Assembly: GCA_023267555.1 (NCBI GenBank)
Contig: JAHFMZ010000001.1
Coordinates: 1 to 62,436 of the forward strand
Direction of reading: 5' to 3'
Source: a bacterium
GTDB lineage: Bacteria; Patescibacteriota; Minisyncoccia; Phycocordibacterales; UBA5272
DNA length: 62,436 bases
Every line of letters starts with the position of its first letter. The first letter of the stretch is position 1. A model generated the notes under the pieces. The model had not been told where the DNA came from, did not search any database, and saw only the letters and a program-made list of their open reading frames with translations. A program made the position numbers and the translations under genes. This document shows positions 1,411 through 26,898 of this stretch, one piece after another.

Positions 1411-1431
1411 CCTAAAATTATTTTGAGTTTT

Positions 1432-1547
<116 letters not shown>

Positions 1548-1587
1548 AGAACTCAAAAATAGAACACAGAAAGAAGAAAGTAAATGA

Positions 1588-1616
1588 AGAACGACCCCGA
1601 AGGGGTCGTTCTTTTG
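1588..1616 (+). terminator. rho-independent terminator after the rRNA operon
   Basis: AGAACGACCCC-GAA-GGGGTCGTTCT followed by a T run. Outer arms CAGAAAGAAGAAA (1566-1578) and TTTCTTCTTTCTG (1636-1648) extend the structure. Confidence 0.7.
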
Positions 1617-1661
1617 TATTTCTCTTCTCTCTTGTTTCTTCTTTCTGTTATACTGGGTTTT

Positions 1662-2429: not shown

Positions 2430-2434
2430 TATCT

Positions 2435-3568
2435 ATGCCTCGTCATATTCCTTCATTTTTTCGCACAGTTGATGCAACTCTTTTTGCATCCATTATTTGT
2501 GTTTTAGTCGCAGGATTACTCACAATGAGTTCTTTTCAATTACACGATAGTTATTTTTGGAGACAAGGTTTATGGATTATTGTCGCATTAAGTGCTTTTA
2601 TTTTTGCTTCACGATTTGAATATCGTTTTCTTAAACAAACACGTATTGTAGTTGCTATTTATTTTGTATTATTATTTATACTCACACTCATTCTTGTTGT
2701 GGGCCATATTTCAAAAGGGGCACAAAGTTGGTTTCAATTCGCAGGAGTTGCTTTTCAACCGAGTGACGTGATGAAGCTTGGATTGATTATTGTTCTGGCT
2801 AAATATTTTTCACGTCGCCACGTAGAAATTGCAAACATTCGTCATATTATTGTTTCTGGTGTATATGCTTTTATACCTTTTGTATTAGTTATACTACAAC
2901 CCGATTTGGGTTCTGCACTGGTCTTATTTTCGATTTGGCTTGGTATGGTGCTAGTATCTGGTATTTCAAAAAAACATCTTTTTGCTGTGATTGCTATTGG
3001 AATTATTTCTTTTTCTCTTGCTTGGAAACTTGTTTTCAAACCATATCAAAAAGCACGCATAATGAATTTTGTTTACCCACTTCAAGATATACGTGGCACG
3101 GGTTATAACGCTTATCAATCGACTATTGCAGTTGGTTCTGGAGGTTTGATTGGTAAAGGACTTGGTTATGGTACTCAATCACGTCTTAATTTTCTTCCAG
3201 AATATAAAACAGATTTTATTTTTGCAGCTTATGCCGAAGAATGGGGATTTATTGGTGCTTGCATCTTGCTTCTTTTTTATGCGCTTATTCTTTATAAAAT
3301 TGCCACTTATGCGCTTGTTGCTGATTCAACTTTTGAAGCTTTATTTACCTATGGAGTATTCGTTTGGTTTCTCACACATATTGTAATTAATGTTGGTATG
3401 AATATTGGTATTATGCCAGTGACAGGTATTCCACTTCCGTTTATGAGTTATGGTGGATCACATATTCTTGCAGAGTGTGTGGCGTTAGGTATATGTGCAG
3501 GGATGTATAGGTATTCACGCGCTGGCCACAAATATCAACTCCAAAATGAATTCCTTGGCCTCGAATAA
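2435..3568 (+). CDS. FtsW/RodA/SpoVE (SEDS) family peptidoglycan glycosyltransferase
   Basis: Multi-TM protein with SEDS motifs QPSDVMKLGLIIVLAKYF, LQPDLGSALV, GSGGLIGKGLGYGTQSRLNFLPEYKTDFIFA and PLPFMSYGGSH. Confidence 0.85.
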   Translation: MPRHIPSFFRTVDATLFASIICVLVAGLLTMSSFQLHDSYFWRQGLWIIVALSAFIFASRFEYRFLKQTRIVVAIYFVLLFILTLILVVGHISKGAQSWFQFAGVAFQPSDVMKLGLIIVLAKYFSRRHVEIANIRHIIVSGVYAFIPFVLVILQPDLGSALVLFSIWLGMVLVSGISKKHLFAVIAIGIISFSLAWKLVFKPYQKARIMNFVYPLQDIRGTGYNAYQSTIAVGSGGLIGKGLGYGTQSRLNFLPEYKTDFIFAAYAEEWGFIGACILLLFYALILYKIATYALVADSTFEALFTYGVFVWFLTHIVINVGMNIGIMPVTGIPLPFMSYGGSHILAECVALGICAGMYRYSRAGHKYQLQNEFLGLE

Positions 3569-3804: not shown

Positions 3805-3852
3805 TGTTATTGTATTTTCTATAACCTAAAACCTAACACCTATAACCTACCT

Positions 3853-5031
3853 TCATTCCCCATATATTTTATAAATCTCGGAACGCATTTTATCCAAATC
3901 AGTAAACGATTGTAAATCTCGGCAGGCGTGTTTTCCTAGATTTTCTCTTAAATCTTTATTTTCTATACAAGTGATAAGTGCCGAGGCAAGTGCGTGAGAA
4001 TCTTCTCTTGGAACAAGCAAACCATTCACTCCGTGATGTATTATTTCTGGCAATCCACCGACATTTGTAGCGACACGTGTTCTACAAGCAAGGCCAGCTT
4101 CGAGTTGTGCATATCCAAGAGCTTCTGTATATGAAGAAGTGATGATAACATCAAAGGCTTTCATAAACAAAGCAGCTTCATTCAAATTATGAATCCACGC
4201 AATATCATTATTTAAATTAAGTTCACGAGCTAGTGTGTGTAAATTAGGGAGTAGACTTCCATTTCCGATACATATTAATTTTGCTTCAGGGTATAAATTA
4301 TGGACTTCTTTAAATGCACGGAAAAGTACGTCGTGACCTTTATTTTTTGTTAGTTCACCAATAATTCCAAAGAGAATAAGTCCTTCGGTTTCAGTGATTT
4401 GAGTTTTGTGAAGCAATACGTCGCGAGCTTTTTCTCTTTCTTTGTATTTTGGTATTTGTATAGCAAGATATATTTGTGTAATTTTTTCTCTAAACATTCC
4501 AAAAGGTCTATCTCTTGCAACGGCTTTGGAAACAGCGATAGCTTTGTGTACACACATAAGTGTCAAAAGTGAAAGTATCTTAAAAATAAAAAGAATGACT
4601 TTCGGTCGTTTTTCATTGTATGGCCAACCGTGTATAGTAAATATTATTTTTTTTATTCCAACTATTCGGCAAGCAATTCCTCCAATAAGTCCCATTTTTG
4701 AGCTGTGTAGATGTACCACATCTGGTTTTACCCGACGAAGAAGACTAATCAAACTAAATAGAGTGCTTAAATCGTGAAGGGGAAGTATAGATCTACGCGC
4801 GTGGAGAAGTCTATACACGGTCACACCTTCTTTTCGAAGTTCGTCCACAAGTGGACCTGTCGGTTGAGTCGCTACCGCTTGTATATATTCTTTGGTGTCT
4901 GTGGCCACATCATAAACATAGCGTTGTGCTCCGCCCCAAGAGGCGCGAGTAATAATATGTAGTACAAAAGGTTTTTTGTGTAGATGATTGACTTTTTCTT
5001 CCTTTATTGTAGTATAGTTATTATCATCCAT
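3853..5031 (-). CDS. glycosyltransferase, GT4 (GT-B fold) family
   Basis: C-terminal motif EALGYAQLEAGLACRTRVATNVGGLPEIIHHGVNGLLV is typical of GT1/GT4 enzymes. 392-aa ORF. Confidence 0.8.
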   Translation of the reverse strand: MDDNNYTTIKEEKVNHLHKKPFVLHIITRASWGGAQRYVYDVATDTKEYIQAVATQPTGPLVDELRKEGVTVYRLLHARRSILPLHDLSTLFSLISLLRRVKPDVVHLHSSKMGLIGGIACRIVGIKKIIFTIHGWPYNEKRPKVILFIFKILSLLTLMCVHKAIAVSKAVARDRPFGMFREKITQIYLAIQIPKYKEREKARDVLLHKTQITETEGLILFGIIGELTKNKGHDVLFRAFKEVHNLYPEAKLICIGNGSLLPNLHTLARELNLNNDIAWIHNLNEAALFMKAFDVIITSSYTEALGYAQLEAGLACRTRVATNVGGLPEIIHHGVNGLLVPREDSHALASALITCIENKDLRENLGKHACRDLQSFTDLDKMRSEIYKIYGE

Positions 5032-5056
5032 ATATATCTAGTATACTGGTTATAAT

Positions 5057-6388
5057 ATGAAATTCCAAAGAAATTTCCATCTCTCCTTTGTCATCATCAC
5101 GGATGTCATTTTTTTAACTTTATCTCTTTATATTGCGCTTTTTTTGCGTAATTTTTTTGATGGTAATACTTTAAATGTTTGGCAACTTTTCTTGGGACAT
5201 ATTTTATATTTCGTACCGCTTTATATTTTAATGATTTCTATTTTATATATTTCTCTTGCATATAGCGATACGACACTTGCTTATTTAAGACGAAGTATTC
5301 CGAAACTTGCAGAATCTTTAACCATCTCTGCAGTCTTTGGTATTTTATATTTTTATATTTTTGCTACTTATTTGCCCATTAGTCCAAAAGTAACATATGC
5401 ATTATTTTTTGCTGTAAGTTTTATTTTGCTTGCTCTTTCTAGAATTGCTTATGCGAAACTTCCTTTACTCGGTGCGCATATAAATGCAGTTGTAATTATA
5501 AAAAGAGGAAGTATTTATGAAAATGTTATTCAAGAAGTGGGAATGAATGCTCCGAGAGCAACTTTTACTCGTGTCACAGAGTTCACAACAAAAAGTGTGG
5601 CGGATTTATTGTCAAAAAGTGGAGCAAGTTTAATCGTTTATGATAATACCGACAAAGAAATTGTTCAATTAATTTCAATGTTGCCGACACATATAATTCG
5701 TTATGCCACAGTCCTTTCGGGAGATATTTTGTATGAACATATTTTTGGTAAAATATTTCTTCCAGCATTTAATGAAGAATCACTTCTTCGTGATTATTTA
5801 AATCAAAAGCCATTTTATGAAATTATTAAACGACTTTTTGATTTAATTATTGCTATACCATTTTTTATTATCACAATTCCTTTTATTGTTGTTGGAATTA
5901 TAGCTATATATATTGAAACTGGACGTCCAGCATTTATTTTTCAAGAACGTTTAGGGGTTGGTCGCAAAATTATGCGTATTCCAAAGTTACGTTCTATGTC
6001 ACAAAATGTAAATGGTGCGTGGGTTGGGGAAGGGGAAAATAAAGTAACCAAAGTTGGAGCATTTTTGAGAAAGACTAGAATAGATGAGTTACCACAACTT
6101 TGGTCTGTAATGAAAGGTGATATGTCGCTCATTGGTCCTCGTCCAGATATGACAGGATTAGAAGCTCGTCTGCGTGAAGAAATTGATTTTTATCACGCTC
6201 GTTATACTGTTCCACCAGGATTATCTGGTTGGGCGCAAGTTACACAAGTCGCTGTTCCTCAAAATGTCGAAGAAACTCGTGAACGTTTTGCTTATGATAT
6301 GTATTATATTAAATATCGTTCTATGTTTTTAGATTTTGGTATTGCTCTTAAGACAGTTCGTATTCTTCTTTCTCGAATGGGACATTAA
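5057..6388 (+). CDS. polyprenyl-phosphate glycosylphosphotransferase (bacterial sugar transferase, WbaP-like)
   Basis: N-terminal TM helices plus a C-terminal sugar-transferase domain: RIDELPQLWSVMKGDMSLIGPRPDM..PGLSGWAQV. Confidence 0.8.
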   Translation: MKFQRNFHLSFVIITDVIFLTLSLYIALFLRNFFDGNTLNVWQLFLGHILYFVPLYILMISILYISLAYSDTTLAYLRRSIPKLAESLTISAVFGILYFYIFATYLPISPKVTYALFFAVSFILLALSRIAYAKLPLLGAHINAVVIIKRGSIYENVIQEVGMNAPRATFTRVTEFTTKSVADLLSKSGASLIVYDNTDKEIVQLISMLPTHIIRYATVLSGDILYEHIFGKIFLPAFNEESLLRDYLNQKPFYEIIKRLFDLIIAIPFFIITIPFIVVGIIAIYIETGRPAFIFQERLGVGRKIMRIPKLRSMSQNVNGAWVGEGENKVTKVGAFLRKTRIDELPQLWSVMKGDMSLIGPRPDMTGLEARLREEIDFYHARYTVPPGLSGWAQVTQVAVPQNVEETRERFAYDMYYIKYRSMFLDFGIALKTVRILLSRMGH

Positions 6389-6512: not shown

Positions 6513-7565
6513 ATGAAAATCTTTATTACTGGAGGTGCAGGATATGTGGGAGCAATGCTTATTGATCAATTTGCGAAGCGTCAGGATGTTGAAAAAATAA
6601 TTACACTTGATAAAGAAAAAGAAACAGAACTTACGGCAAAAAATATAAATAAAGACAAAATTATTTATTTAGAAACAAATACATCTGATAATTGGGAAGA
6701 AAAAGTAAAAGAATATAATCCAGATGTTGTGATTCACACAGCGTGGCAAATTCGTCATATGTATGGACAAGAAGAATTGGAATGGAAATGGAATATAGAT
6801 GGATCAGATAAAGTGTTTGATTTTGCTTTTAATACGCCGTCAGTAAAGAAATTAATTTATTTTTCTTCCGTTTCTTCTTACGGAGCATTTGCAGATAATA
6901 GTATGGATCATTTTTATAAAGAGGAAGAACCATTCAGAAAAAGTGGATATCTTTATGCTGAAGAAAAAAGAATTTGTGAAGAACATTTGGAAGAAAGATA
7001 TAAAAAAGCAAAAGAAAATAATTGGAATGGACAAGTATTTATTGTGCGCCCAGCAGCCATCACTGGCCCACGTGGTCGTTATGATCGTATTCGTTTTGGA
7101 CTTCAATCTGCGTTATCTGGTAATCTTCACGGAGGTTTTGCATATAAAATTGTCACCTTGCTCACGTCATTTGTTCCAGTTACAAAGAAATGGTTGCGCC
7201 AATATATACACGAAGATGATGTTACCGATATTGTAGCTCTGTTTACTTTCAATAATTTAGAAGGTTCTTACGAAGTATTTAATATTTCTCCACCGGGAGA
7301 TGTTGTTCTTGGAAAAGATATGGCTCGCGCGGTTAATAAAAATATTTTACCGATTTTCCCGTGGATGGCGCGGTTGGCTTTCTTTTTCTTTTGGCACGTG
7401 ACTCGTGGGAAAATTCCGACATCTCCAGGAAGCTGGAAAGGGTATTCTTATCCAATTGCAGTTGATGGTTCAAAAATTACAAAACAATATGGCTTCCAGT
7501 ACAAATATCAATCAAAAGATGCTTTTGTAAATAATGAAGGAAGATACAAGGTAATTATAAATTAA
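6513..7565 (+). CDS. NAD-dependent epimerase/dehydratase family protein
   Basis: Rossmann start MKIFITGGAGYVG at the internal ATG 6513. The upstream 19 codons of ORF 6456.. overlap a terminator-like hairpin. Confidence 0.75.
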   Translation: MKIFITGGAGYVGAMLIDQFAKRQDVEKIITLDKEKETELTAKNINKDKIIYLETNTSDNWEEKVKEYNPDVVIHTAWQIRHMYGQEELEWKWNIDGSDKVFDFAFNTPSVKKLIYFSSVSSYGAFADNSMDHFYKEEEPFRKSGYLYAEEKRICEEHLEERYKKAKENNWNGQVFIVRPAAITGPRGRYDRIRFGLQSALSGNLHGGFAYKIVTLLTSFVPVTKKWLRQYIHEDDVTDIVALFTFNNLEGSYEVFNISPPGDVVLGKDMARAVNKNILPIFPWMARLAFFFFWHVTRGKIPTSPGSWKGYSYPIAVDGSKITKQYGFQYKYQSKDAFVNNEGRYKVIIN

Positions 7566-7619
7566 AGTTTATATAGTCAGCTTGATTTAGTTAAAGAAAT
7601 ACTGTATAATTGCACAACT

Positions 7620-8249
7620 ATGATGCAGATAACAACTAGCGCTCGCGCTCCAAAAGAAATCAAAAGAGAAGGCTTTATTCCTGCTGTTTATTATGGCGCA
7701 CACCAAGCTTCTACTCCAATTTTTATTGATGCAATTGAATTTAAAAAAGTGAATGCTGCGGTCGGAGAATCAGGTTCTATTGTCCTTGTTACAGAGCACG
7801 GAAATGAAAACGCTATGATTCAAGATGTACAAGTTGACCCAGTAAAAGGTTTTCCAATACACGTAGATTTTTATACTCTTGAAAAGGGTCAAAAAGTTCA
7901 CGTTAAGACTCCGATTACTATTGTTGGGGAATCCCAAGCTGTGAAAGATGGCGGTGTTCTAGTAAAAGTATTGCACGAACTTTCTGTTGAAGGTGATCCA
8001 GCAAAACTTCCTCACGAGTTTACAGTTGATATTTCATCACTTGTTACAAAAGATGACGTTATTCACGTGCGCGATATCAAACTTCCAGCTGGTGTAGAAC
8101 TTTATCACGTAACTTTAGATGATGTTGTTGTTTCTATCACTGAAGCCAAGGAAGAAGTGGAAGAAGTTCCAGTTGCTACTGATTTGAGTGCAATTGAGGT
8201 AGAAGAGAAGGGAAAGAAGGAAGAAGAAGCCGAAGTCCCAGCTGAATAA
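7620..8249 (+). CDS. rplY: 50S ribosomal protein L25/Ctc
   Basis: REGFIPAVYYG..VQVDPVKGFPIHVDFY, with an acidic C-terminal tail; typical Ctc-form L25. Confidence 0.85.
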   Translation: MMQITTSARAPKEIKREGFIPAVYYGAHQASTPIFIDAIEFKKVNAAVGESGSIVLVTEHGNENAMIQDVQVDPVKGFPIHVDFYTLEKGQKVHVKTPITIVGESQAVKDGGVLVKVLHELSVEGDPAKLPHEFTVDISSLVTKDDVIHVRDIKLPAGVELYHVTLDDVVVSITEAKEEVEEVPVATDLSAIEVEEKGKKEEEAEVPAE

Positions 8250-8254
8250 TACAC

Positions 8255-8376
8255 CGATCCATAAATTGGCGACCTGCTTGATGATTTTTGAAAAAAGTTT
8301 TTCAACGTACACGCTAGTACGTCTCTAAACTTTTTTCAAAAATCATCTGCACACCTCATCCAATTTCTGGATTGGC
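8255..8376 (+). repeat. stop-codon-proximal imperfect palindrome, copy B
   Basis: Perfect 21-bp arms GATGATTTTTGAAAAAAGTTT and AAACTTTTTTCAAAAATCATC flank TTCAACGTAC-ACGCTA-GTACGTCTCT. It starts 6 nt after the rplY stop. Confidence 0.75.
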
Positions 8377-8405
8377 TAACGTTGTTCAAGAAAATTCAAA
8401 TACAA

Positions 8406-8440
8406 TACAAAGAGCGACCACGAAGTGGTCGCTCTTTGTA
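8406..8440 (+). terminator. terminator hairpin with core GAGCGACCAC-GAA-GTGGTCGCTC (copy 1 of 3 identical cores)
   Basis: 16-bp perfect stem TACAAAGAGCGACCAC/GTGGTCGCTCTTTGTA with a GAA loop, followed by a T-rich tract. Confidence 0.75.
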
Positions 8441-8549
8441 TTTCTCTCACCTTTATTTCTCTTGACTCTATTCTGTTAATACGTGTGGACAACCATTTAG
8501 ATATTATCTCTACGTAGGGGTATAATAAAAGTAATAAATATCAAATAAT

Positions 8550-9164
8550 ATGGAAATACAAAATACTAATAGTAGTGAAAGTGGGCTTTGTTCTAGTTCT
8601 AATAAACTTATATCCTACATATTTTCTGCTTTTGTCGTCGGGGCTGTTGTTGGAGTGTTGGTAGATCCGTATTTGCCAGCTTCTTTGAGTGGTTCTAACA
8701 AAAGTTATCAAGCTGGTTTTGATAATGCCAAAAGTCTTGTAGAAAACAGCAGTCTCGGGGCTGCGTTCAAAACTCCCAATGAAATAAAACAGTTGTCTGG
8801 CTCTGTTACCGCTATTAATGGAAGTCAGCTCACTCTTAAAGTCAAATCAACAAATCCATTTGACGATCCATCTCTTGCTAACCGTACAGTTCTTTTGAAT
8901 ACTTCCACAAAAGTAGTTAGTCTTACAGCAAAACCTTCTGCAACATATCAAGCCGAAGTAGATAGTTTTATTAAAGCACAATCAAATACGGCAACTACTA
9001 GTGCCACAAAATCTCTCCCTTCTGCTTTCGTTTCATCTCCTGTAAATATTACAAATATTGCCATTGGAGATTCTATTAATGTATTGACTTCACAAAATAT
9101 AAAGACTTTGAAGGAATTTACTGCGACCGAAGTTCAAATTCTACCAAATAATATCGCTAAATAA
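8550..9164 (+). CDS. hypothetical membrane-anchored/secreted protein
   Basis: 204-aa ORF with an N-terminal hydrophobic helix (ISYIFSAFVVGAVVGVLV). No family recognised. Confidence 0.6.
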   Translation: MEIQNTNSSESGLCSSSNKLISYIFSAFVVGAVVGVLVDPYLPASLSGSNKSYQAGFDNAKSLVENSSLGAAFKTPNEIKQLSGSVTAINGSQLTLKVKSTNPFDDPSLANRTVLLNTSTKVVSLTAKPSATYQAEVDSFIKAQSNTATTSATKSLPSAFVSSPVNITNIAIGDSINVLTSQNIKTLKEFTATEVQILPNNIAK

Positions 9165-9176
9165 TTTTTTATTATA

Positions 9177-10022
9177 ATGTCTCTCAAAAAATTGTCACAA
9201 TTAAATATAATAAAATCAGGAGTATTGTTTGTGCTTCTCATTTCATCATTCTTTTTAGGGAATACAAAAGTAGAAGCAGGTGCTGTGTCGTGGGGAGTTG
9301 TCAATGAAGTTTGCTTTGGTTATGATACTACCGCAAGAACCGGAGGGTGGGTTTATACTGATTGGGGAGATCAGTATGTTACTTACCCGGAACCTTTATT
9401 CTCAACTAGTTTTGGTGATGCGACTTTAACACAGCTCTCAGCTTATTTCCAAGAATATCCTATAATCAAACCGGGAACACTTTATTATTATGAAATAATG
9501 ACTAGCGATGGACCTGTTACTTCATACTTTCCTAATTCTGCTTGTAAAGGTGTCGAAAGTACACATTATTTTGCTGCAAATACCAGTAAGCAGATAGACG
9601 AATATGCTCCGGGCGAAACAATAACTGCTTCTCTCGGTGCAAACTCTTCTGGTGGATACACACAAGGTGGATGGAGTGGTTTTACAACTAGTCTTCTATG
9701 GAATCCTATTACTGGACCTATTAGTTGTTTCCTTTTTGGTTGTGATTCTCCACCATATGTTAGAGTGCTTGCTAGTGTGCAAGGACAGTATATTGCTGAT
9801 TGTCACGGTGATGGTACAGCTGGATGTTCGGGTACAATAAATACTCCCAGTGTTCCACTTGCCCCAGGGAGTTACAATCTTCATCTTGAAGGATGCTATA
9901 TAAACTGTTCACCTGTCGGCACTGCAGATATTCCTTTTGTTGTAACTACTCCTGCTGTACCTACTGTTCAATTAAATTTCAGTTTTTTGGATAAAATAAA
10001 ATCTTCTCTAGGAATAATATAG
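9177..10022 (+). CDS. hypothetical secreted protein
   Basis: 281-aa ORF with a signal-like N-terminus (GVLFVLLISSFFLGNTKVEA), several Cys and a Gly/Thr-rich region. Confidence 0.6.
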   Translation: MSLKKLSQLNIIKSGVLFVLLISSFFLGNTKVEAGAVSWGVVNEVCFGYDTTARTGGWVYTDWGDQYVTYPEPLFSTSFGDATLTQLSAYFQEYPIIKPGTLYYYEIMTSDGPVTSYFPNSACKGVESTHYFAANTSKQIDEYAPGETITASLGANSSGGYTQGGWSGFTTSLLWNPITGPISCFLFGCDSPPYVRVLASVQGQYIADCHGDGTAGCSGTINTPSVPLAPGSYNLHLEGCYINCSPVGTADIPFVVTTPAVPTVQLNFSFLDKIKSSLGII

Positions 10023-10039
10023 GGTTGGAAATAATTACT

Positions 10040-10068
10040 AATGAGCGACCACGAAGTGGTCGCTCATT
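10040..10068 (+). terminator. terminator hairpin with core GAGCGACCAC-GAA-GTGGTCGCTC (copy 2)
   Basis: AATGAGCGACCAC-GAA-GTGGTCGCTCATT, 18 nt after the stop at 10022. Confidence 0.75.
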
Positions 10069-10170
10069 GTAATTGTATTTACTCTCGACTCTCTCCTCTA
10101 AACTCTTAACTATTATTTGTCCACACCTGTAATATATACGATAGAATGAACCTAGCGTATACTAAAATCA

Positions 10171-10917
10171 ATGGAAAAAAATACAAAAATTACATTATTT
10201 GTACTGGTTCTTATTATTGTTGGTATTTATATATACACTCTCCCTAGATTTTCAGAGGAAACCTCAAAAGTTAATAGAATATTCAAGAAGCAAACTACTC
10301 CGGCGCTTGTTTTATTGCAAGAAAAGGTTACAGGTGTTTATCCAGATAAACTAAAAATAACTTTCGTTAAGGATTCTGTAGAGAAAACAGTAATTATCAA
10401 TCCAAATACAAAAATTGAAAAGATTATTTCACAAAAAAATGCGAAAGGAGAAGTAGAAAAACAGGCTATTGTAGAAGTAAATATTAGTGATATAAAAAAG
10501 GGAAGTCTAGTAAATATTAATTATCAAACAGAAGTTTCCAATCAATTAAATGGTGTTAATAGTATTTCTTTTGTCGTAAATGGTAGTGTTGATAAACTGC
10601 AAATATCTAAACCAGACACCAATGTGTATATGAAGGGTGAAATTATTTCTGTTGATACCAGTAGTACCACTCAAAAGAGTATTAAATATAAAACTTACAG
10701 TTTAAATTCTACTGGAGCAACTGCAAATATGCTTGTTCCTGATGGAATTGCGATATACAAAGTATCTGATCAATCACGATTATCCATACTTCACGCACGC
10801 GTATCAATTACACTTGCTGATATAAAATCCAAACAAGTTGCTCTTTTTGTACTAGATACAAAAGCTCTTCAAAAAGGAAAAATTATTCCACAAGAGATTA
10901 TTATCTTAGATAAATAA
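10171..10917 (+). CDS. hypothetical membrane-anchored protein
   Basis: 248-aa ORF with an N-terminal TM helix (ITLFVLVLIIVGIYIYTL). Confidence 0.6.
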   Translation: MEKNTKITLFVLVLIIVGIYIYTLPRFSEETSKVNRIFKKQTTPALVLLQEKVTGVYPDKLKITFVKDSVEKTVIINPNTKIEKIISQKNAKGEVEKQAIVEVNISDIKKGSLVNINYQTEVSNQLNGVNSISFVVNGSVDKLQISKPDTNVYMKGEIISVDTSSTTQKSIKYKTYSLNSTGATANMLVPDGIAIYKVSDQSRLSILHARVSITLADIKSKQVALFVLDTKALQKGKIIPQEIIILDK

Positions 10918-19301: not shown

Positions 19302-20570
19302 ATGATAGAGAACATTTTACAAGGGCTGATGTATCCATTCCTATTTTTGTCTATGTATTTTCAAGTACTTCTCTTGACTTCATTTTTTGAAAATAAAAGG
19401 AAAATAAAACGTGAAGAAAAACACGAAATACAAAATTATCCAACTGTAGCTGTTGCTGTTCCGTGTTGGAATGAAGAAAAAACTTTGGGGAGTACATTGG
19501 ATTCTTTACTTGCTCTTGATTATCCAAAAGATAAACTTTCAATTATTGTTGTGGATGATGGTAGTAAAGATAGAACTTTTGCTATTGCAGAAGTGTATGC
19601 ACATAATTATCCAAATCAAATAAAAGTATTTGCAAAAGAAAATGGTGGCAAACACACAGCAGTTAATCTCGCTTTAGAAAATTCTACATCAGATTTGTTT
19701 GGTTGTCTTGATGCTGATTCTTTTGTTAATAAAAATTCATTGAAGGTTATAGTCTCATATTTTGAGGCTGATAAAAATACTATGGCTGTGACTCCGTGTA
19801 TTCATATCCGTAATCCACATACACTTATACAACGATTGCAAGCTATAGAATATTTAATGGGTGTATTTTTGCGTAAAGCTTTTGGCCAACTCGATGCCAT
19901 ACAAGTAACTCCCGGACCTTTTTCTATTTTCAAAAAAGAAGTGTTTGATAAATTGGGTGGATATCGCAAAGCTCACAATACAGAAGATTTTGAAATCACT
20001 TTACGTATGCACAAAGCACATTTAAAAATTGTTAATTCACACAAAGCTCTTGTATATACAGTTGGGCCAGCGACAGCTAGGGGTTTCTTTTTCCAGCGTC
20101 TTCGTTGGGCGAGAGGATTTTTGGAAAATTCTTTAGATTATAAAGAATTATTTTTCAAAAAAGAATATGGCAACTTTGGAATGGTAACTCTTCCTTTAGC
20201 TTTTCTTTTTATGTTTTATGGTTTGTATGCAGCAATTTTTTCTGTGTATACATTATTTTCACAGCTATCAACTTATATAAGCAGATGGCTCACAGTTGGT
20301 TTTCATTTTCGTATGCCAGTATTTGATATTTTTTATTTTAATACAACAATGATGTCATTTGTTGTGATGGTGATGCTTTCTATGTTCCTTTTGGTTTTAT
20401 ATATTGGAAATACATTATCAGATGATAAACAGCAATTTTATCGTAATTTCCCAATATTTTTCATTCTCTATCCAATATTTGTTCCGCTATTTCTTGGTCG
20501 TGCAATTTTTGATACATTTACAAAAAGAAAAAATGTATGGGTTTTACAAGACACCAAACACAGCCTTTAG
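19302..20570 (+). CDS. processive family 2 glycosyltransferase (NodC/PgaC/cellulose-synthase-like)
   Basis: VVDDGSKD, LDADS and the QRLRWARG (QxxRW) motif, with TM helices at both ends. Confidence 0.8.
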   Translation: MIENILQGLMYPFLFLSMYFQVLLLTSFFENKRKIKREEKHEIQNYPTVAVAVPCWNEEKTLGSTLDSLLALDYPKDKLSIIVVDDGSKDRTFAIAEVYAHNYPNQIKVFAKENGGKHTAVNLALENSTSDLFGCLDADSFVNKNSLKVIVSYFEADKNTMAVTPCIHIRNPHTLIQRLQAIEYLMGVFLRKAFGQLDAIQVTPGPFSIFKKEVFDKLGGYRKAHNTEDFEITLRMHKAHLKIVNSHKALVYTVGPATARGFFFQRLRWARGFLENSLDYKELFFKKEYGNFGMVTLPLAFLFMFYGLYAAIFSVYTLFSQLSTYISRWLTVGFHFRMPVFDIFYFNTTMMSFVVMVMLSMFLLVLYIGNTLSDDKQQFYRNFPIFFILYPIFVPLFLGRAIFDTFTKRKNVWVLQDTKHSL

Positions 20571-20605: not shown

Positions 20606-21367
20606 ATGACTGGACACTTACATCCAATTACCTTGGCTATCGCTCGTATATCAGATATCTTTTCCAAGATGGGGTTTGATACTGTTGATGGCCCAGAACT
20701 TGAAGATGAATGGCATAATTTTGATGCATTAAATATTGCAAAAGATCATCCTTCGCGCGATATGCAGGATACTTTTTGGATTAAAAATAAAAAAGGTACA
20801 GATAAATATGGTGAAGAAACAGGATATGTATTACGCACTCATACGAGTAATATGCAGATTCGTACAATGGAAAAATATGTAGCCGAAGGTCGCTCTTTTC
20901 CACTAGCTATTTGTTGTCCGGGAAAAGTTTTTCGTAATGAAGCGACAGACGCGACGCACGAAGCGCAATTTCATCAAGTAGAAATGTTATATGTGTCCAA
21001 AGATGCTTCACTTGCAATGATGATTGGCGTGATTGAAAAGTTTTTCTCAGATTTTTTCGGTACAGATTTGGTGATTCGTCTTCGCTCTAGTTATTTTCCA
21101 TTCGTGGAACCGGGGAATGAAGTTGATATGCAATGTTTTAAATGTAAAGGTAATGGTTGCAATATTTGCAAACAAACTGGCTGGATAGAAATTGGTGGAG
21201 CGGGAATGGTACATCCAAAAGTTTTGGAAGCAGGGGGAATTAATCCGCGAGAATATCGTGGTTTTGCTTTTGGTTGCGGCATAGATAGAATGATAATGCT
21301 CAAATATGGTTTGGATGATATTCGTTTGCTGTACAGTGGTGATCTTCGAGTAGTAAATCAATTTTAA
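20606..21367 (+). CDS. pheS: phenylalanine--tRNA ligase alpha subunit (short N-terminus)
   Basis: THTSNMQIR, GKVFRNEATDATHEAQFHQVE, FPFVEPGNEVD, GWIEIGGAGMVHPKVL, GFAFGCGIDRM. Confidence 0.9.
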   Translation: MTGHLHPITLAIARISDIFSKMGFDTVDGPELEDEWHNFDALNIAKDHPSRDMQDTFWIKNKKGTDKYGEETGYVLRTHTSNMQIRTMEKYVAEGRSFPLAICCPGKVFRNEATDATHEAQFHQVEMLYVSKDASLAMMIGVIEKFFSDFFGTDLVIRLRSSYFPFVEPGNEVDMQCFKCKGNGCNICKQTGWIEIGGAGMVHPKVLEAGGINPREYRGFAFGCGIDRMIMLKYGLDDIRLLYSGDLRVVNQF

Positions 21368-21369
21368 AT

Positions 21370-23724
21370 ATGAAATTTTCCAAATCGTGGTTACAAGATT
21401 ATATTGTTGATGTGCTTCCAAAAGATGAAGTAATTGTCGACACATTAAATAAAAAAGCTTTTGAGGTTGAAGAAACAATAAAACTTTCTGATGATACTGT
21501 TTTTGATATAAAAATTTTACCGAATCGCGCACACGACGCGCTTGGTCACAGTGGTATGGCGCGCGAACTTTGCGCAGATTTTGGTTTTAAATTTAAAGAA
21601 GATAAATTTATACAAAAAAGTAAAAATTTATTAGATAAAAAAATTTCTATTCCGCTTCTTGCAATTGATGACGAAAAAGCCTGCACTCGTTTTATGAGCA
21701 TACGTATAGACGATATAGTGGTCACAGATAGCCCCCAGTGGCTCAAAAATCGCCTAGAATCGATAGGACAACGCAGTATCAACAATATAGTGGATATTAC
21801 AAATTACGTGCAATTTGCGTTAAATAAGCCAATGCACGCATATGACACTCGCACCATTTCCGGCACACTTCGCGCACGTTTTGCTAAGTCTGGCGAGACA
21901 TTAACAACCCTTGATGACAAGTCTCTCACACTAGACGAACAGACTCTTGTGATTGCGGATGATACAAAAGCCCTCGGTCTCGCTGGAATAAAAGGTGGCA
22001 AGTTTAGTGGCATACAAAAAGACACAACGAGTGTAATTTTGGAGAGCGCGAATTTCTCACCATCACTCATCAGAAAGACTTCACAAAGATATGGACTTCA
22101 TACCGATGCTTCCAAACGATTTGAAAATGGTATTGCAAATTCTTTAGTCGAAGAGGGTTTATATATGACTGCCAATTTGATAAAAGAAATTTGTACCGAT
22201 GCAAAATTAAGTGAAGTTGTAGATATTTATCCAAAGAAAGATACAGAATATTATGTGGGAATTTCTCGCAAAGAATTGAATGATATTTTGGGTACAAAAT
22301 ATACAGACGATAAAATTAAAAAAACTTTTGAGCAGATGTCATTTTCATTTGAAAATATTGTTCCCGAAAATTATATTAAAGAAACATATCCGAAACTTGT
22401 TAATGCTCTTTATAAAAATCCTTCAAATATGCGCGAGGATGCTCCGAAGGCATTTAGTTGTTCGTCACTTATCAGTTATTTATACAAAGGTATTTGGATG
22501 CCAAGTCTTTCTATTGATAAATATGTATTTGCAGAAAAAATAAAAAAAGAAGAATTGCGTTTTGGTGATTTAGTTTTCGCAAATACTGGTGAAGGTAAAA
22601 TTCGTTTTGAATCAGAAGAATTTTTGCGTGGCACAAAAGTTCCCGAAGGTGTTGATCATATTGGTATGTATTTAGATGATAATAAAATTATTCACGCAAC
22701 AAAAATTGTTGGAAAGGTTGTGATTGAAACACAAGAAGAGTTTGAAGTTAATCGCAAAATTGTTGGTTATGGGAGAATATCAAATAACTTAAAAGAAGAA
22801 AGATATATTGTAAATATTCCAAAAGAAAGACTTGATATTCATATCAAAGAAGAGTTGGCCGAAGAAATTGGTCGTATAATTGGATATGAAAAAATTACCC
22901 CGACACTACCAGAACTTACAAATGTTGGTATTATTCATAAGCGAATGTTTTATGAAAATGAAGTTCGTGAAATTTTGCTCACAAGAGGGTATTCTGAAGT
23001 GATGACCTACACATTCGGAAATGAAGGCGAAGTAGAAATCGTAAAAGGTTTGGCTGATGATAAAGAAAAATTACGTACAAATATTGGTAAAGGATTATTG
23101 CAATCGCTTCTGCTTAATATTTATAATGCGCCACTTCTAGGACAAAAAACTATAAAGATTTTTGAATTTGGAAATGTTTTCTCTAATAATAAAGAAACTA
23201 GGAATTTTGCACTAGCGAGCGATGACGGTGCAAAGAAAAGTAATTTTACTGAAGAAGTTGATATGATACTTGCTGAAATTAAACGTCGCCTTGGTGTCAG
23301 TGGTATTGAATGCACAACAGTATCTGCCAAGCCATATGTAATTGAAATTGATTTTGATACACTTATAAATAAATTACCAGAACCAACAAAATATGAAGCA
23401 CCCACATTCTCGTCTTTACCTTTGGTTAGCTATAAATCAGTCTCGCCTTATCCGTTTATCGCCCGTGATATTGCTATGTGGGTATCTGATAACGCGGAAT
23501 GGGAAAGTATCAAGTCTCTTTGCGATAAAGTATCTAATCCTCTTGTCGCTCGTGTTGATCTTTTTGATACGTTCTCCAAAGAAATAGATGGTGTAAATAA
23601 AACTTCGTATGCTTTTCGTCTTGTTTTCCAAAGTTATGAAAAAACTTTGACTGATGATGAAGTAAATAAAATGATGGAGCCGTATTATGAATTATTTAAG
23701 AATAAGGGTTACGAAATAAGATAA
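21370..23724 (+). CDS. pheT: phenylalanine--tRNA ligase beta subunit carrying an inserted NlpC/P60-like domain
   Basis: MKFSKSWLQDYI start, B3/4 and B5 strings (..IPKERLDIHIKEELAEEIGRIIGYEKI) and a C-terminal FDX-ACB-like end. About 150 aa with C..H..H papain-like motifs lie between the two halves of B5. Confidence 0.85.
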   Translation: MKFSKSWLQDYIVDVLPKDEVIVDTLNKKAFEVEETIKLSDDTVFDIKILPNRAHDALGHSGMARELCADFGFKFKEDKFIQKSKNLLDKKISIPLLAIDDEKACTRFMSIRIDDIVVTDSPQWLKNRLESIGQRSINNIVDITNYVQFALNKPMHAYDTRTISGTLRARFAKSGETLTTLDDKSLTLDEQTLVIADDTKALGLAGIKGGKFSGIQKDTTSVILESANFSPSLIRKTSQRYGLHTDASKRFENGIANSLVEEGLYMTANLIKEICTDAKLSEVVDIYPKKDTEYYVGISRKELNDILGTKYTDDKIKKTFEQMSFSFENIVPENYIKETYPKLVNALYKNPSNMREDAPKAFSCSSLISYLYKGIWMPSLSIDKYVFAEKIKKEELRFGDLVFANTGEGKIRFESEEFLRGTKVPEGVDHIGMYLDDNKIIHATKIVGKVVIETQEEFEVNRKIVGYGRISNNLKEERYIVNIPKERLDIHIKEELAEEIGRIIGYEKITPTLPELTNVGIIHKRMFYENEVREILLTRGYSEVMTYTFGNEGEVEIVKGLADDKEKLRTNIGKGLLQSLLLNIYNAPLLGQKTIKIFEFGNVFSNNKETRNFALASDDGAKKSNFTEEVDMILAEIKRRLGVSGIECTTVSAKPYVIEIDFDTLINKLPEPTKYEAPTFSSLPLVSYKSVSPYPFIARDIAMWVSDNAEWESIKSLCDKVSNPLVARVDLFDTFSKEIDGVNKTSYAFRLVFQSYEKTLTDDEVNKMMEPYYELFKNKGYEIR

Positions 23725-24281
23725 TGAAATTAGAAGTCCCATATTATTCGCAGTTTATTGATGTAGAAGATAAGTTTTGGATGCTACGGGCTTGTGGTGC
23801 TGTGTGTTTTAAAATGGTTGTTGAATATTACGGGGAAAATATACCCGATATTGTTAAATTTTGTAATGAAGCCAAAGAAAATGGTGGATACGATATAAAT
23901 AATGGTTGGGTACATAATTATTTAGTAACAAAAGCAGAAGAACTTGGATTACAGGCACGTAGATCGGAAGGACTTACGAGTATTACAGATGAAATAATGG
24001 CATCACTTGATGCTGGAAATCCTGTAATTGTTTCAGTAGAAAAAAGAGTGCTCGAGCAAACACGTTTTCATCTCATTGTTCTTGTTGGTTATGAAAAAGG
24101 AGATGAAGGGGATCTTACAGTTGTATCTGAATCTTCTAGTCCCTATCACCTATCACCTAACACCTATTTCTATTATCACGAACCAGAATCTACTGACAAA
24201 ACTCGTGGTGCGTATCGTATTTGCGATGTAGAAATTTTCAAAAATTATTGGCGGGGGAAAGCAATTTTTATTTCCAAATAA
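23724..24281 (+). CDS. peptidase C39-like (papain-fold) domain protein
   Basis: VPYYSQ..W..RACGAVCFKMVVEYYG and FHLIVLVGYE resemble the C39_2 family Cys and His motifs. The start overlaps the pheT stop (ATAATG). Confidence 0.6.
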   Translation: MKLEVPYYSQFIDVEDKFWMLRACGAVCFKMVVEYYGENIPDIVKFCNEAKENGGYDINNGWVHNYLVTKAEELGLQARRSEGLTSITDEIMASLDAGNPVIVSVEKRVLEQTRFHLIVLVGYEKGDEGDLTVVSESSSPYHLSPNTYFYYHEPESTDKTRGAYRICDVEIFKNYWRGKAIFISK

Positions 24282-24282
24282 T

Positions 24283-25566
24283 ATGCAGTTGAGAGATTAT
24301 AAAAATGTACATTGTATTGGTATTGGAGGTATAGGACTTTCAGCTATTGCTAGATATTGCAATTCTAATGGTGCGAAAGTTTCTGGTTCAGATGTTTCTT
24401 CTTCTCGCATCACAGATGATTTACAGAAAGAAGGAATAAATATTTTTATCGGACATAAGTCCGATAATTTAAAAAAAGATACAGACTTGGTCATTTATTC
24501 AATTGCTGTTTTAGACGACAATCCAGAATTGATTGAAGCAAGAAATAAAAATATTTTGTGTATGACTTATCCCGAGGCATTAGGTACTCTTACACAAGAA
24601 TATAAAACTATTGCTGTATGCGGCACTCACGGCAAGACGACAACGACTGCTATGATTGCTTCTATGTTAAAAGCTTGTGGCAAATCACCTACAGTTATTG
24701 TGGGTAGCCTTTTATCTGAAGGTGGAACAAATTTTATACAAGGTAATAGTGAATATTTAGTTGTTGAAGCGTGTGAATATAGGCGTTCATTCCTTAATCT
24801 TTTTCCAACATATGTTGTTGTGACGAATATTGATGAAGATCACCTTGATTATTATAAAGATATGAATGATATTCATTCTGCCTTCCAATCATTCGCGGAT
24901 AAGGTTCCAAAGGATGGATGTCTGGTTACACATAGTGATGTCAAATTAAATACGCAAGGTAAAAAAATAAATGATGATTCTATTGATGCAAATAATATCG
25001 AACTTTCTGTTCTTGGTAATCATAATCATTCAAATGCAAACTTAGCTCTTTCTTTAGCAAAAACTCTTGGTCTTGATGAATTAAAAGCTCGCGAGGGATT
25101 GAAAAATTTTACAGGAACGTGGCGTAGATTGGAATATAAAGGCAAAACAAAGAATGGAATTATAGTTTATGATGATTACGGACATCATCCGGTAGAAATA
25201 AAAGCAACACTAGAAGCTCTACGTGAAGCGTATCCAAAAGGAAAAAATATTTTGCATATATTTTTTCAACCACATTTGTATTCACGTACAAAATTATTAT
25301 TGGATGATTTTGCAAAAGCGTTTGATGAAGCAGACATTGTTTACGTGATGCCAATTTATGCTGCCAGAGAAAAAAATGACAATACTATTTCTAGTTTAGA
25401 TTTGGTAGAAAAATTAAAATTACGCGGAGTGAACGCTCAAATACTTGATAATATACAGGTGATGAAATCATTTATAGAAAATATTACAGACTCAAAATCT
25501 ATTGTGCTTAATTCTGGTGCTGGAGATGCGTACACAGTGCTTAATGAAATTAATCTTGTGAAATAA
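24283..25566 (+). CDS. murC: UDP-N-acetylmuramate--L-alanine ligase
   Basis: VHCIGIGGIGLSAIARY, CGTHGKTTTTAMIASML, and the Mur ligase middle and C-terminal domains. Confidence 0.88.
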   Translation: MQLRDYKNVHCIGIGGIGLSAIARYCNSNGAKVSGSDVSSSRITDDLQKEGINIFIGHKSDNLKKDTDLVIYSIAVLDDNPELIEARNKNILCMTYPEALGTLTQEYKTIAVCGTHGKTTTTAMIASMLKACGKSPTVIVGSLLSEGGTNFIQGNSEYLVVEACEYRRSFLNLFPTYVVVTNIDEDHLDYYKDMNDIHSAFQSFADKVPKDGCLVTHSDVKLNTQGKKINDDSIDANNIELSVLGNHNHSNANLALSLAKTLGLDELKAREGLKNFTGTWRRLEYKGKTKNGIIVYDDYGHHPVEIKATLEALREAYPKGKNILHIFFQPHLYSRTKLLLDDFAKAFDEADIVYVMPIYAAREKNDNTISSLDLVEKLKLRGVNAQILDNIQVMKSFIENITDSKSIVLNSGAGDAYTVLNEINLVK

Positions 25567-25569
25567 TCT

Positions 25570-26898
25570 ATGAAAAAGGATTTGTATTTTCCATATTTTG
25601 AAAATAAAAAAGTTACAGTGCTCGGGCTCGGGCTTTTGGGTAGAGGGATTGGTGATACAAGATTTTTAGCGATGAATAATGCAGAAATTATTGTGACTGA
25701 CAAAAAAACAGAAGAACAATTGGCTTCGTCTGTTTCAGAGCTTAAAGATTTTCAAAATATAAAATATGTTTTGGGTGAACATCGTTTAGAAGATTTTCAA
25801 AATAGAGATTTTATTTTAAAAGCTGCAGGAGTACCGACTGATAGTGAATATATACAATGTGCAAAGGAAAATAATATTCCTGTTTATATGTCTGCTGCGC
25901 TTATGTGTGATATTGTGATGAGAGAATTACCACAGGTAGTTATTATTGGCATCACTGGCACACGAGGAAAAAGTACGGTTACAGAATTGATAGCATATAT
26001 TTTACGAGAAAATGGTTCACGGGTGCATCTAGGTGGAAATATTCGTGGAGTAGCCAACCTTCCTTTGCTTGATGTTATCGAAGACGGAGATTTTTTAATT
26101 TTGGAATTAGATTCTTGGCAATTACAAGGGTTTGGAGATATGAAAATAAGTCCGCATATTGCAGTCTTCACTAGTTTTTTGGATGATCATATGAATTATT
26201 ATAAAAATGATAAAGAATTATATTTTGCAGATAAGGCAAATATTTATCGCAATCAGCATAGTGGAGATGTATTGATTGCTAGCGCTCAGGCTGTGGGAGA
26301 GATTCTTATTCGAGAAAGAGTGTCTGTTATCGTTCCAGAAAAAAAAGATTTTGAAATGAATCTTATCGGTGAACATAATAAAGTTGCAGCAGGACTTGCT
26401 TATGAAGTTGCTGCGCAATGTGGATTGGATGATGAAAGTATAAGAGGAGCGATTAAAACTTTTAAGGCGGTAGATGGTCGTTTGCAAGATATGGGGTTGT
26501 TTAAAAATAATGTAATAGTTTTTAACGATAATAACGGTACCACAGAAGATGCGACAATTGTGGCTATCAATTCCATTTTTGAAAAGTTTGATAAAAAACC
26601 TATTTTGATTGTAGGTGGTGGAGATAAAGGTTTACCAATTAATGAACTCGAAAAAATAATACAAGAAAAAACAAAAGCAGTTGTTTATTTATCTGGAGCA
26701 GGTACAGATAGGATTTCTATTAAAAAAGAATATGAATATGAAAAACTTTCAGATTGTATAGTCAAAGCCTTTGAATTGTCAGAAGAGGGAGATATTATTT
26801 TATTTTCTCCAGCTTTCGCATCTTTTTCAAAATATTTTAATAATGAATATGAACGTAATGATACTTTCGTAAAAGAAGTAGAAAAGTTTAGAAAATAA
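25570..26898 (+). CDS. murD: UDP-N-acetylmuramoylalanine--D-glutamate ligase
   Basis: KKVTVLGLGLLGRG Rossmann-like start, GITGTRGKSTVTELIAYIL P-loop, and a Mur ligase C-terminal domain. Confidence 0.8.
   Translation: MKKDLYFPYFENKKVTVLGLGLLGRGIGDTRFLAMNNAEIIVTDKKTEEQLASSVSELKDFQNIKYVLGEHRLEDFQNRDFILKAAGVPTDSEYIQCAKENNIPVYMSAALMCDIVMRELPQVVIIGITGTRGKSTVTELIAYILRENGSRVHLGGNIRGVANLPLLDVIEDGDFLILELDSWQLQGFGDMKISPHIAVFTSFLDDHMNYYKNDKELYFADKANIYRNQHSGDVLIASAQAVGEILIRERVSVIVPEKKDFEMNLIGEHNKVAAGLAYEVAAQCGLDDESIRGAIKTFKAVDGRLQDMGLFKNNVIVFNDNNGTTEDATIVAINSIFEKFDKKPILIVGGGDKGLPINELEKIIQEKTKAVVYLSGAGTDRISIKKEYEYEKLSDCIVKAFELSEEGDIILFSPAFASFSKYFNNEYERNDTFVKEVEKFRK

Follow-up and report, generated by a model that had tools for sequence, protein, structure and literature searches.

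Introduction

The NlpC/P60 D,L-endopeptidases (MEROPS C40), represented by MepS/Spr, Acd24020, and CwlT-type enzymes, are papain-fold cysteine hydrolases recognized by a conserved tyrosine and a Cys-His-His triad. Enzymes of the MepS/Acd24020 type are secreted or lipoprotein wall hydrolases that often carry SH3b or LysM domains, whereas those of the YkfC type act on free murein peptides and not on the wall, and possess an accessory SH3b domain that packs on the catalytic domain and shapes its pocket. This article describes an NlpC/P60 domain that lies inside the B5 domain of the beta subunit (PheT) of a bacterial phenylalanyl-tRNA synthetase (PheRS), encoded on a 62,436-nucleotide stretch of DNA from a member of the Patescibacteriota (assembly GCA_023267555.1, contig JAHFMZ010000001.1, positions 1 to 62,436; the whole stretch is hereafter called the window). 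Aminoacyl-tRNA synthetases (aaRSs) are among the most thoroughly catalogued enzymes, and a nested cysteine-peptidase domain is absent from the domain catalogues consulted; among the domains associated with aaRSs, none of an NlpC, peptidase, or hydrolase kind is named in the AARS Online paper (PMC11580382).

The host protein has well-described counterparts. Canonical PheRS beta subunits (TIGR00472; Escherichia coli 3pco, Thermus thermophilus 1pys) share with the window protein their domain order, the adjacency to pheS, the editing residues, and an acidic cluster in B5, but they possess B1/B2 domains, which the window protein lacks, and they do not have the roughly 145 extra residues that it carries in B5. 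A precedent for a PheRS beta domain that exists as a separate protein is provided by CtdA, a free-standing editing enzyme derived from PheRS B3/B4 (PMC12268091; PDB 9f7e, 9mkl). The monomeric PheRS of mitochondria (FARS2; 3cmq) joins a PheS core to an FDX-ACB domain in one chain, an architecture that is encountered below in relatives of the window genome, though not in the window itself. When compared with these systems, the window stands out on two counts: its NlpC/P60 hydrolase is nested and cytoplasmic, a context without precedent, and its PheRS beta architecture is apparently undescribed. The explanation that we favor, to which we give about even credence, is that the insert would be an autonomous cytoplasmic amidase or peptidase for peptidoglycan-type peptides, acting together with a C39_2 papain-like protein encoded next to it.

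An NlpC/P60 Domain Nested in B5 of PheT

A preliminary description of the window, made from the sequence and its open reading frames (ORFs), had placed an NlpC/P60-like domain with an intact triad at 22354-22803, inside B5 of an otherwise normal PheT. Profile score, predicted fold, active-site residues, and the clean split of B5 all agree with that proposal. Its borders match those drawn from secondary structure (22360-22800), the three catalytic codons that it named are exact, and the peptides that it quoted are present in the protein. The features of the domain, all on the forward strand, are as follows.

22360..22800 (+): NlpC/P60 (C40) papain-fold domain, PheT residues 331-477 (147 residues), in place of the B5 beta2-beta3 hairpin
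22411..22413 (+): Tyr348 codon, conserved NlpC/P60 tyrosine upstream of the nucleophile; present in 70/71 fused and 84/86 free-standing sequences
22459..22461 (+): Cys364 codon, putative catalytic nucleophile, motif FSCSS; Cys in 70/71 fused and 85/86 free-standing sequences
22582..22650 (+): family-specific segment NTGEGKIRFESEEFLRGTKVPEG, residues 405-427, between the GDLVF strand and the catalytic His
22657..22659 (+): His430 codon, catalytic histidine by homology, motif VDHIG; His in 70/71 fused and 86/86 free-standing sequences
22693..22695 (+): His442 codon, third triad member by homology, motif IIHAT; His in 69/71 fused and 77/86 free-standing sequences

Within the complete protein, Pfam places PF00877 (NLPC_P60) at residues 359-465 with 38.7 bits against a gathering cut-off of 23, and the insert by itself scores 45.0 bits (E = 1.2e-11). 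The Pfam B5 match falls into two stretches, of which residues 473-506 correspond to profile positions 34-67; when the insert is removed in silico, a single contiguous B5 match is restored (positions 3-67 of 67, 55.9 bits). Alignment to E. coli PheT (3pco_B) places the insertion equally clearly, with window residues 32-319 pairing with 146-429 and residues 482-552 with 447-518, such that some 145 additional residues in the window protein take the place of a hairpin of about 17 residues in that of E. coli (approximately 430-446). NCBIfam returns RipB and MepS-type matches to the insert, which are below their full-length cut-offs, and the best matches in a sequence search of the PDB are all NlpC/P60 hydrolases.

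Structure prediction places the same domain between the same two strands. The AlphaFold model of residues 291-510, built with 44 homologues, has a mean predicted local distance difference test (pLDDT) value of 95.2 and a predicted template-modeling (pTM) score of 0.89, and follows the order beta1, alpha1, alpha2, beta2, hydrolase, beta3, alpha3, so that a confidently predicted NlpC/P60 fold is set between B5 beta2 and beta3. Foldseek matches this model, with a probability of 1.0 and target-normalized TM-scores of 0.80-0.83, to 7cfl, 7v6s, and 9ubf; the matches with these scores are Acd24020, MepS, and Acd33800, and YkfC and DPP VI are also listed. The high pTM score points to a single rigid unit made up of B5 and the hydrolase. 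The solvent-exposed beta2-beta3 hairpin of B5, which we read as a permissive surface site, has given way to a complete NlpC/P60 domain.

It is extremely improbable that the insert is an artefact (a frameshift, a mis-assembly, or a chimera) or an intein-like mobile self-splicing element, although its scattered occurrence at a single precise position bears a superficial likeness to the distribution of inteins. A frameshift or chimera at the borders, which the preliminary description had raised as a possible refutation, was looked for and not found: the pheT ORF (21370..23724) runs through both borders without a stop or frameshift, GC content is even over the insert and its flanks (0.29-0.33), and the same architecture occurs in 70 independent assemblies, which excludes an assembly chimera. 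An intein is ruled out as well, as there is no Pfam Hint/intein match in PheT, the junctions FE/NIVPEN and NLKEE/RYIV (the stroke marks the border) are not splice-junction residues, and the module is also found as an ordinary free-standing gene.

Active-Site Conservation and Relation to Characterized Hydrolases

The Tyr/Cys/His/His set is kept in approximately 99% of 157 sequences (71 fused and 86 free-standing) at identities of about 35-70%, a degree of conservation in both contexts that argues for a catalytically active enzyme under selection. In the mechanism that we propose, Cys364 would attack as the nucleophile, with His430 as general base, His442 as orienting residue, and Tyr348 helping to shape the active site. 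Cys364 is also invariant in two further alignments of family members, and the position of His442 is occupied by Gln in six of the 86 free-standing modules. Conservation extends beyond the active site to N115, E127, and G137 (module numbering; at least 90%) and to E417, which is Glu in 56/71 fused and 79/86 free-standing sequences.

A non-catalytic role, in which the insert would serve as a structural or regulatory binding module, as RipD does among NlpC/P60 proteins, or would be neutral baggage in an exposed loop, is very improbable. The hairpin is a permissive site, relatives without the insert exist, and one of the 71 fused sequences is substituted at all four catalytic positions; these observations are outweighed by the near-universal retention of the four residues and by the survival of the module as a gene of its own after the loss of PheT, with the hydrolase at least as well conserved there as in the fused form.

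The closest characterized homologues are the gamma-D-Glu-diamino-acid endopeptidases MepS, Acd24020, YkfC (3h41), and DPP VI. With the MepS/Acd24020 group the insert shares fold, profile, and catalytic residues, but it has no signal peptide and lies inside a cytoplasmic synthetase, and Pfam finds no SH3b or LysM domain in PheT or in the examined relatives. The insert further differs from canonical NlpC/P60 domains by a conserved extra segment before the catalytic histidine (residues 405-427), which is absent from them and aligns opposite gaps totaling 13 residues in 7cfl. A secreted autolysin or P60-type wall hydrolase is ruled out, the domain being internal to cytoplasmic PheT and its free homologues having no hydrophobic N-terminus (0/84 free modules with an N-terminal hydrophobic segment).

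Catalytic domains of YkfC/DPP VI-type endopeptidases (3h41, 3pvq, 4r0k, 2hbw, 2evr) are among both the sequence and the fold matches of the insert, at about 20% sequence identity. By analogy with these enzymes, the rigid B5-hydrolase unit could work as their accessory-domain arrangement does, with the difference that the accessory domain of YkfC is SH3b and the one found here is a split, winged-helix-like B5 domain. Membership of the YkfC-type recycling endopeptidases was rejected: there is no SH3b match, the neighbors are pheS, C39_2, murC, and murD, and no ykfABCD-type operon partners are seen at the window locus.

The Host Protein

The insert is carried by what looks like a functional bacterial PheRS whose beta subunit differs from the canonical form, the insert aside, by the missing B1/B2 domains only. 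The parts of the synthetase are as follows.

20606..21367 (+): pheS, PheRS alpha subunit, 253 aa, short, catalytic core only; Pfam tRNA-synt_2d E = 1.9e-91; TIGR00468 280 bits against a cut-off of 237
21370..23724 (+): pheT, PheRS beta subunit, 784 aa, single ORF, without B1/B2, with the nested hydrolase
21679..22194 (+): B3/4 editing domain, PheT residues 104-275; Pfam B3_4 E = 3.2e-60
22249..22359 (+): B5 first half, residues 294-330; beta1, alpha1, alpha2, beta2 in the AlphaFold models
22801..22887 (+): B5 second half, residues 478-506; beta3, alpha3; acidic D489, E495, E498, E499
22894..23439 (+): B6/B7 catalytic-like module (CLM); Pfam tRNA_synthFbeta, residues 509-614; PheRS beta fold match
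23443..23721 (+): B8, FDX-ACB anticodon-binding domain; Pfam FDX-ACB residues 692-784, E = 3.1e-20

PheT scores 424.4 bits on the NCBIfam model TIGR00472 (pheT_bact; cut-off 402.65) and carries B3/4, B5, CLM, and FDX-ACB in canonical order next to pheS. Its full-length AlphaFold model (pLDDT 91.2, pTM 0.73) finds bacterial PheRS beta chains first in a fold search of the PDB (E ~1e-48), with NlpC/P60 proteins further down and CtdA among the matches to the B3/4 part. In the alignment to 3pco_B, the residues that match E. coli R244, N254, H265, E334, T354, and A356, which we take to be the editing-site residues, are conserved, and N145 and H156 are invariant across 60 full-length relatives. The acidic cluster of B5 aligns to E. 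coli D454, D460, E463, and E464, presumably the UniProt-annotated Mg2+ ligands shared with the alpha subunit. It is the conservation of the editing residues and of this cluster that gives the host protein the look of a working beta subunit. The absence of B1/B2 has been reported for many PheRS beta subunits of the Candidate Phyla Radiation (CPR; PMC5370408).

An insert that replaced a degenerate editing domain is thus ruled out for the fused forms, since their B3/4 residues are conserved. PheT would be only the carrier of the hydrolase, which would stand outside both aminoacylation and editing.

Distribution of the Nested Architecture

Genomes were surveyed with one genome per GTDB species. 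The survey returned 162 loci that encode the B5::NlpC/P60 module, and the best 80 of the 162 were classified with the window's own domains: in 70 the module lies inside a full PheT, in nine it is free-standing, and in one it is fused to C39_2. The 70 fused loci, which include the complete Campbellbacteria genome CP011215.1, show B3/4, module, CLM, and FDX-ACB after a short pheS, with complete ORFs of about 743-874 aa. An exhaustive profile search of 1.84 billion cluster representatives gave 180 at E <= 1e-30; among the best 150 of these, full-size PheTs account for 104, and in them the module occupies about residues 290-520. The matches of a first homology search had been nearly all free-standing proteins or fragments of PheT, which looks like a bias of the tool, since fused PheTs of full length predominate in both the survey and the profile search. 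A strict regular expression for the triad matched 55 of the 104 full-size representatives; it was too strict, and alignment counts are used instead. Two proteins with high module-profile scores, P0092 (1183 aa) and P0215 (666 aa), carry NlpC/P60 domains in tandem, nine in the former and five in the latter, and are unrelated to PheT.

The nested architecture is real and ancient within a group of Patescibacteria, and in this large group it is the majority form of PheT. The preliminary description knew of no PheRS with such an insertion. As regards the literature this holds, as no description of an NlpC/P60 domain nested in PheRS beta was found; an insert unique to this genome it is not. The survey of orthologues that it had suggested finds the insert common in relatives and absent from some close ones.

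PheT Proteins without the Insert

A search with B3/4 alone, followed by alignment, identified PheTs without the insert, whose B5 hairpin is plain and six residues long (…FKY-VTENDV-YTVEIP…), namely P0410 (locus L087) and P0370 (locus L088). L087 is as close to the window as L007, the nearest insert-bearing relative, with 87% identity in PheS and 80% in B3/4. It has neither the insert nor a C39_2 gene after pheT, the pheT stop at 3231 being followed directly by the murC start at 3233. The trees, here and below, were built by neighbor-joining and have no support values. In that of B3/4 alone, the 75 PheTs that bear the insert and the 54 that do not are intermingled, with L087 inside the window's clade, and this pattern indicates that the insert has been lost repeatedly, or possibly gained repeatedly.

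Three further insert-less loci (L089-L091) have pheS, a shortened pheT of 420-481 aa, a separate FDX-ACB ORF, and gyrB, and no C39_2 gene. The shortened pheTs give a weak CLM match in two of the loci and none in L091. Such a layout may be an intermediate toward the fusion of FDX-ACB with PheS. The two ORFs lie at the following positions.

L089: pheT 7001-8446; FDX-ACB 8430-8759
L090: pheT 7001-8437; FDX-ACB 8451-8732
L091: pheT 6975-8237; FDX-ACB 8246-8794

In L090, a bAvd gene and a reverse-transcriptase gene (3808-5176), which resemble the core of a diversity-generating retroelement, are located two genes upstream of pheS.

Free-Standing Modules and Single-Chain PheRS

In other relatives, the module occurs as a gene of 200-240 aa that covers about 95% of a query consisting of B5 half, hydrolase, and B5 half. 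In Zambryskibacteria-like loci, a B5::NlpC/P60 gene of 200-230 aa is the only piece of PheT. Its surroundings are those seen in the window (GT2, pheS, module, sometimes C39_2, then gyrB), but the synthetase gene next to it encodes 372-395 aa with a PheS core and FDX-ACB and no B3/4. Apparently, the beta subunit is gone in these lineages and the B5::NlpC/P60 module alone survives of it. The single-chain genes include the following.

L001: 6816-8000 (-)
L003: 2909-4057 (+)
L005: 6824-7963 (-)
also present in L033, L035-L037, L044, and L082

In the PDB, the best match of the PheS-FDX-ACB protein is human mitochondrial PheRS (E = 2e-56), ahead of bacterial alpha subunits (~1e-36). Scores lie below the cut-offs both of TIGR00469 pheS_mito (238-240 bits against 258) and of NF051887, 'PheS-related mystery ligase SrmL' (248-255 bits against 300). 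These proteins, which unlike FARS2 are bacterial (Patescibacteria), would represent a single-chain PheRS of mitochondrial (PheRS-M) architecture, predicted to be monomeric. A literature search on bacterial monomeric PheRS and 'SrmL' returned nothing relevant. A bacterial PheRS of monomeric type would be notable in its own right, and its presence in these loci bears on how the single-chain form arises. The PheS-FDX-ACB proteins form one long-branch clade, whereas the tree of the module has two free-standing clades. In the Zambryskibacteria locus L001, on a contig shared with L040, gyrB (8641-10698) is present as three ORFs of 262, 238, and 161 aa, either a split gene or the product of sequencing errors.

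Fused and free forms differ in what has been conserved. Pairwise identity of the hydrolase is 0.53 among free and 0.48 among fused sequences, whereas that of the B5 alpha3 helix falls to 0.29 in the free forms from 0.62 in the fused. All four acidic positions of B5 are 94-100% acidic in the 71 fused PheTs; in the 86 free forms, the position of E. coli D460 is Asp in nine, that of E463 is Glu in seven, and that of E464 is Glu in 38, and the position of D454 is mostly still acidic. The B5 remnants of the free forms are only weakly recognizable by profile (20 and 14 bits). We propose that the B5 halves pack rigidly on the hydrolase as a structural platform, for which reason they would travel with the free-standing hydrolase. 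The free genes would be a second case, after CtdA, of a PheRS beta domain become a separate protein; CtdA keeps tRNA editing and its own fold is catalytic, whereas in the free modules B5 would only frame a foreign hydrolase.

A link to tRNA has to be weighed at this point. The hydrolase might proofread mis-acylated, D-aminoacyl, or N-blocked aminoacyl-tRNAPhe, or might load Phe, drawn from Phe-tRNA or Phe-AMP, on Cys364 as a thioester for transfer to an acceptor, as LRAT-type NlpC/P60 acyltransferases would; for the single-chain PheRS, the free module would act in trans. Papain-fold cysteine enzymes can hydrolyze esters and thioesters, the domain sits in an aaRS in most genomes, and one protein that contains the module (P0115) has a weak LRAT match (E = 0.006). 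Of 15 free-standing loci, 13 have the free module beside the PheRS gene; both B5 halves are retained in the free module, and the neighboring single-chain PheRS has no editing domain. We nevertheless regard such a link as unlikely. In the fused PheTs the B3/4 editing site is intact, so a second site would be redundant, and close relatives have lost the insert yet keep PheT. The acidic B5 cluster is lost in the free modules, and in two loci (L075 and L081) the module has moved from pheS to a cell-wall cluster. The module is acidic (pI ~5.7) and has no recognizable RNA-binding feature; its significant homologues are all peptidoglycan peptidases, and no known editing fold was matched by the insert in Pfam, NCBIfam, PDB sequence, or PDB fold searches. 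The fuller scenario, in which a synthetase-embedded active site would first have worked on the products of PheRS, by proofreading or by passing Phe from a Cys364 thioester to a cell-wall precursor or some other acceptor, and would later have become a trans-acting partner of a bacterial mitochondrial-type PheRS, appears more doubtful still, and we judge it decidedly improbable.

The Probable C39_2 Partner and Cell-Wall Genes

Downstream of pheT, the preliminary description had read a C39-like gene followed by murC and murD, an order that Pfam and NCBIfam support.

23724..24281 (+): C39_2-like papain-fold protein, 185 aa, no signal peptide; Pfam PF13529 E = 1e-12
24283-25566 (+): murC; TIGR01082 439 bits against a cut-off of 335
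25570-26898 (+): murD; TIGR01087 253 bits against a cut-off of 212

The C39_2 family is one of small, single-domain proteins, with 120 listed homologues at 57-99% identity. A Gln…Cys-Gly motif stands at the extreme N-terminus of the window protein, and Q...C[GA] occurs in all 120 listed homologues, of which 117 have no N-terminal hydrophobic segment and none has a credible signal peptide. No characterized homologue was found among solved structures. The median isoelectric point of free modules and C39_2 homologues is 5.5-5.7.

The two papain-fold proteins tend to occur together. Of 57 insert-bearing loci, 31 have the C39_2 gene no more than 1.2 kb downstream of pheT and five others have it elsewhere in the locus, whereas it is absent next to the insert-less pheT in 4/4 loci (L087 and L089-L091); the association has a one-sided Fisher p of 0.024, to be read with the proviso that the loci are not phylogenetically independent. 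In three sequence clusters, L075 (5971-7173, +), P0100 (392 aa), and P0115 (397 aa), module and C39_2 are joined in one ORF. Where the module is detached from pheS, in L075 and L081, its neighbors are an S11 D-Ala-D-Ala carboxypeptidase, a GT4 (MraY/WecA-type) protein, and a CAP protein, and further a VanW protein with a peptidoglycan-binding domain, DUF218, and an M23 peptidase; by the annotation of these genes, the surroundings are a cell-wall gene cluster. The downstream linkage to murC and murD is limited to the window's clade.

The same co-occurrence could be read as that of two cytoplasmic peptidases of general function, without any connection to the cell wall, engaged for example in peptide salvage by an auxotrophic epibiont or in the removal of leaders or tags, with the placement in PheT providing translation-coupled expression only. 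The two enzymes co-vary, are fused in three lineages, and are both cytoplasmic, C39-type enzymes are classically leader-peptide proteases, and the linkage to murC/murD is seen in one clade only. Against such a general role, which we consider unlikely, the nearest NlpC/P60 homologues are D,L-endopeptidases of peptidoglycan peptides and not general proteases, the relocated modules lie among cell-wall genes, and no conserved gene for a candidate protein or peptide substrate is found nearby in the surveyed loci.

Directly upstream of pheS, the window encodes a multi-pass GT2 glycosyltransferase (19302-20570, +) that is PgaC/IcaA-like (189 bits, below the cut-off), and this gene is conserved upstream of pheS, in either orientation, in nearly all related loci.

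Proposed Function of the Nested Hydrolase

From sequence comparison we infer enzymatic activity, a peptidoglycan-type substrate, cooperation with C39_2, and a placement in PheT that serves co-expression only. The case for an autonomous hydrolase is that the module survives without PheT and PheT without the module, and that in the free form it is the beta-subunit features that decay and not the hydrolase. The bond cut would most likely be an amide of gamma-D-glutamyl type, as suggested by the closest characterized relatives, the cell-wall neighborhoods, and the ties to C39_2 through covariation and fusion. Stem peptides of peptidoglycan would serve as substrate, or else their cytoplasmic precursors or turnover products, and the hydrolase would act in concert with the papain-like protein of the next gene. 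Of the three functions that the preliminary description had ventured, the comparative data favor the recycling of peptidoglycan peptides and a moonlighting hydrolase, and disfavor an additional editing or deacylase activity.

Several observations weigh against this proposal of a cell-wall peptide hydrolase. The case for peptidoglycan is built from family resemblance and gene neighborhood, and the proposal does not account for the choice of PheT as host. The position of the free module beside the PheRS gene, and the constraint under which the B5 halves are kept in the module, would also fit a continuing physical link to PheRS. No C39_2 gene was found at 21 of the 57 insert-bearing loci or at 12 of 14 free-standing ones. 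L087, the clearest case of a joint loss, has a pheT (1425-3231) that is frameshifted and has lost about 30 aa, among them the conserved 'SPxWLKxRLExxGQRSINNIV' segment of B3/4, and is perhaps a pseudogene or an assembly error. The Mur ligase gene downstream is a true murC by profile, which rules out the recycling ligase mpl and does not strengthen the idea of recycling, and neither a murein-peptide transporter nor an epimerase is seen near the window locus.

As the majority form of PheT in a large and poorly understood radiation, the architecture points to an unrecognized conserved cytoplasmic activity in bacteria about whose cell-wall and salvage metabolism little is known. The natural variants, comprising the module without PheT, PheT without the module, and the module fused to C39_2, make the question experimentally tractable.

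Other Features of the Window

The window opens with the 3' part of a 23S rRNA gene (1-1086), which matches Rfam positions 2507-2925 only (419 positions over 1086 nt). This implies about 650 extra nt inside the 23S 3' domain, maybe a CPR-type rRNA insertion or an intron. Between the 23S and 5S genes lies a tRNA-like gene (1340-1412, +), for which ARAGORN gives 'anticodon (ga)' without assignment and Rfam tRNA gives 38.8 bits. Toward the other end of the window, ARAGORN predicts a divergent pair, tRNA-Ser(ACT) (57127-57214, -) and tRNA-Ser(GCT) (57338-57426, +), the A34 of the former being unusual for a bacterial Ser tRNA.

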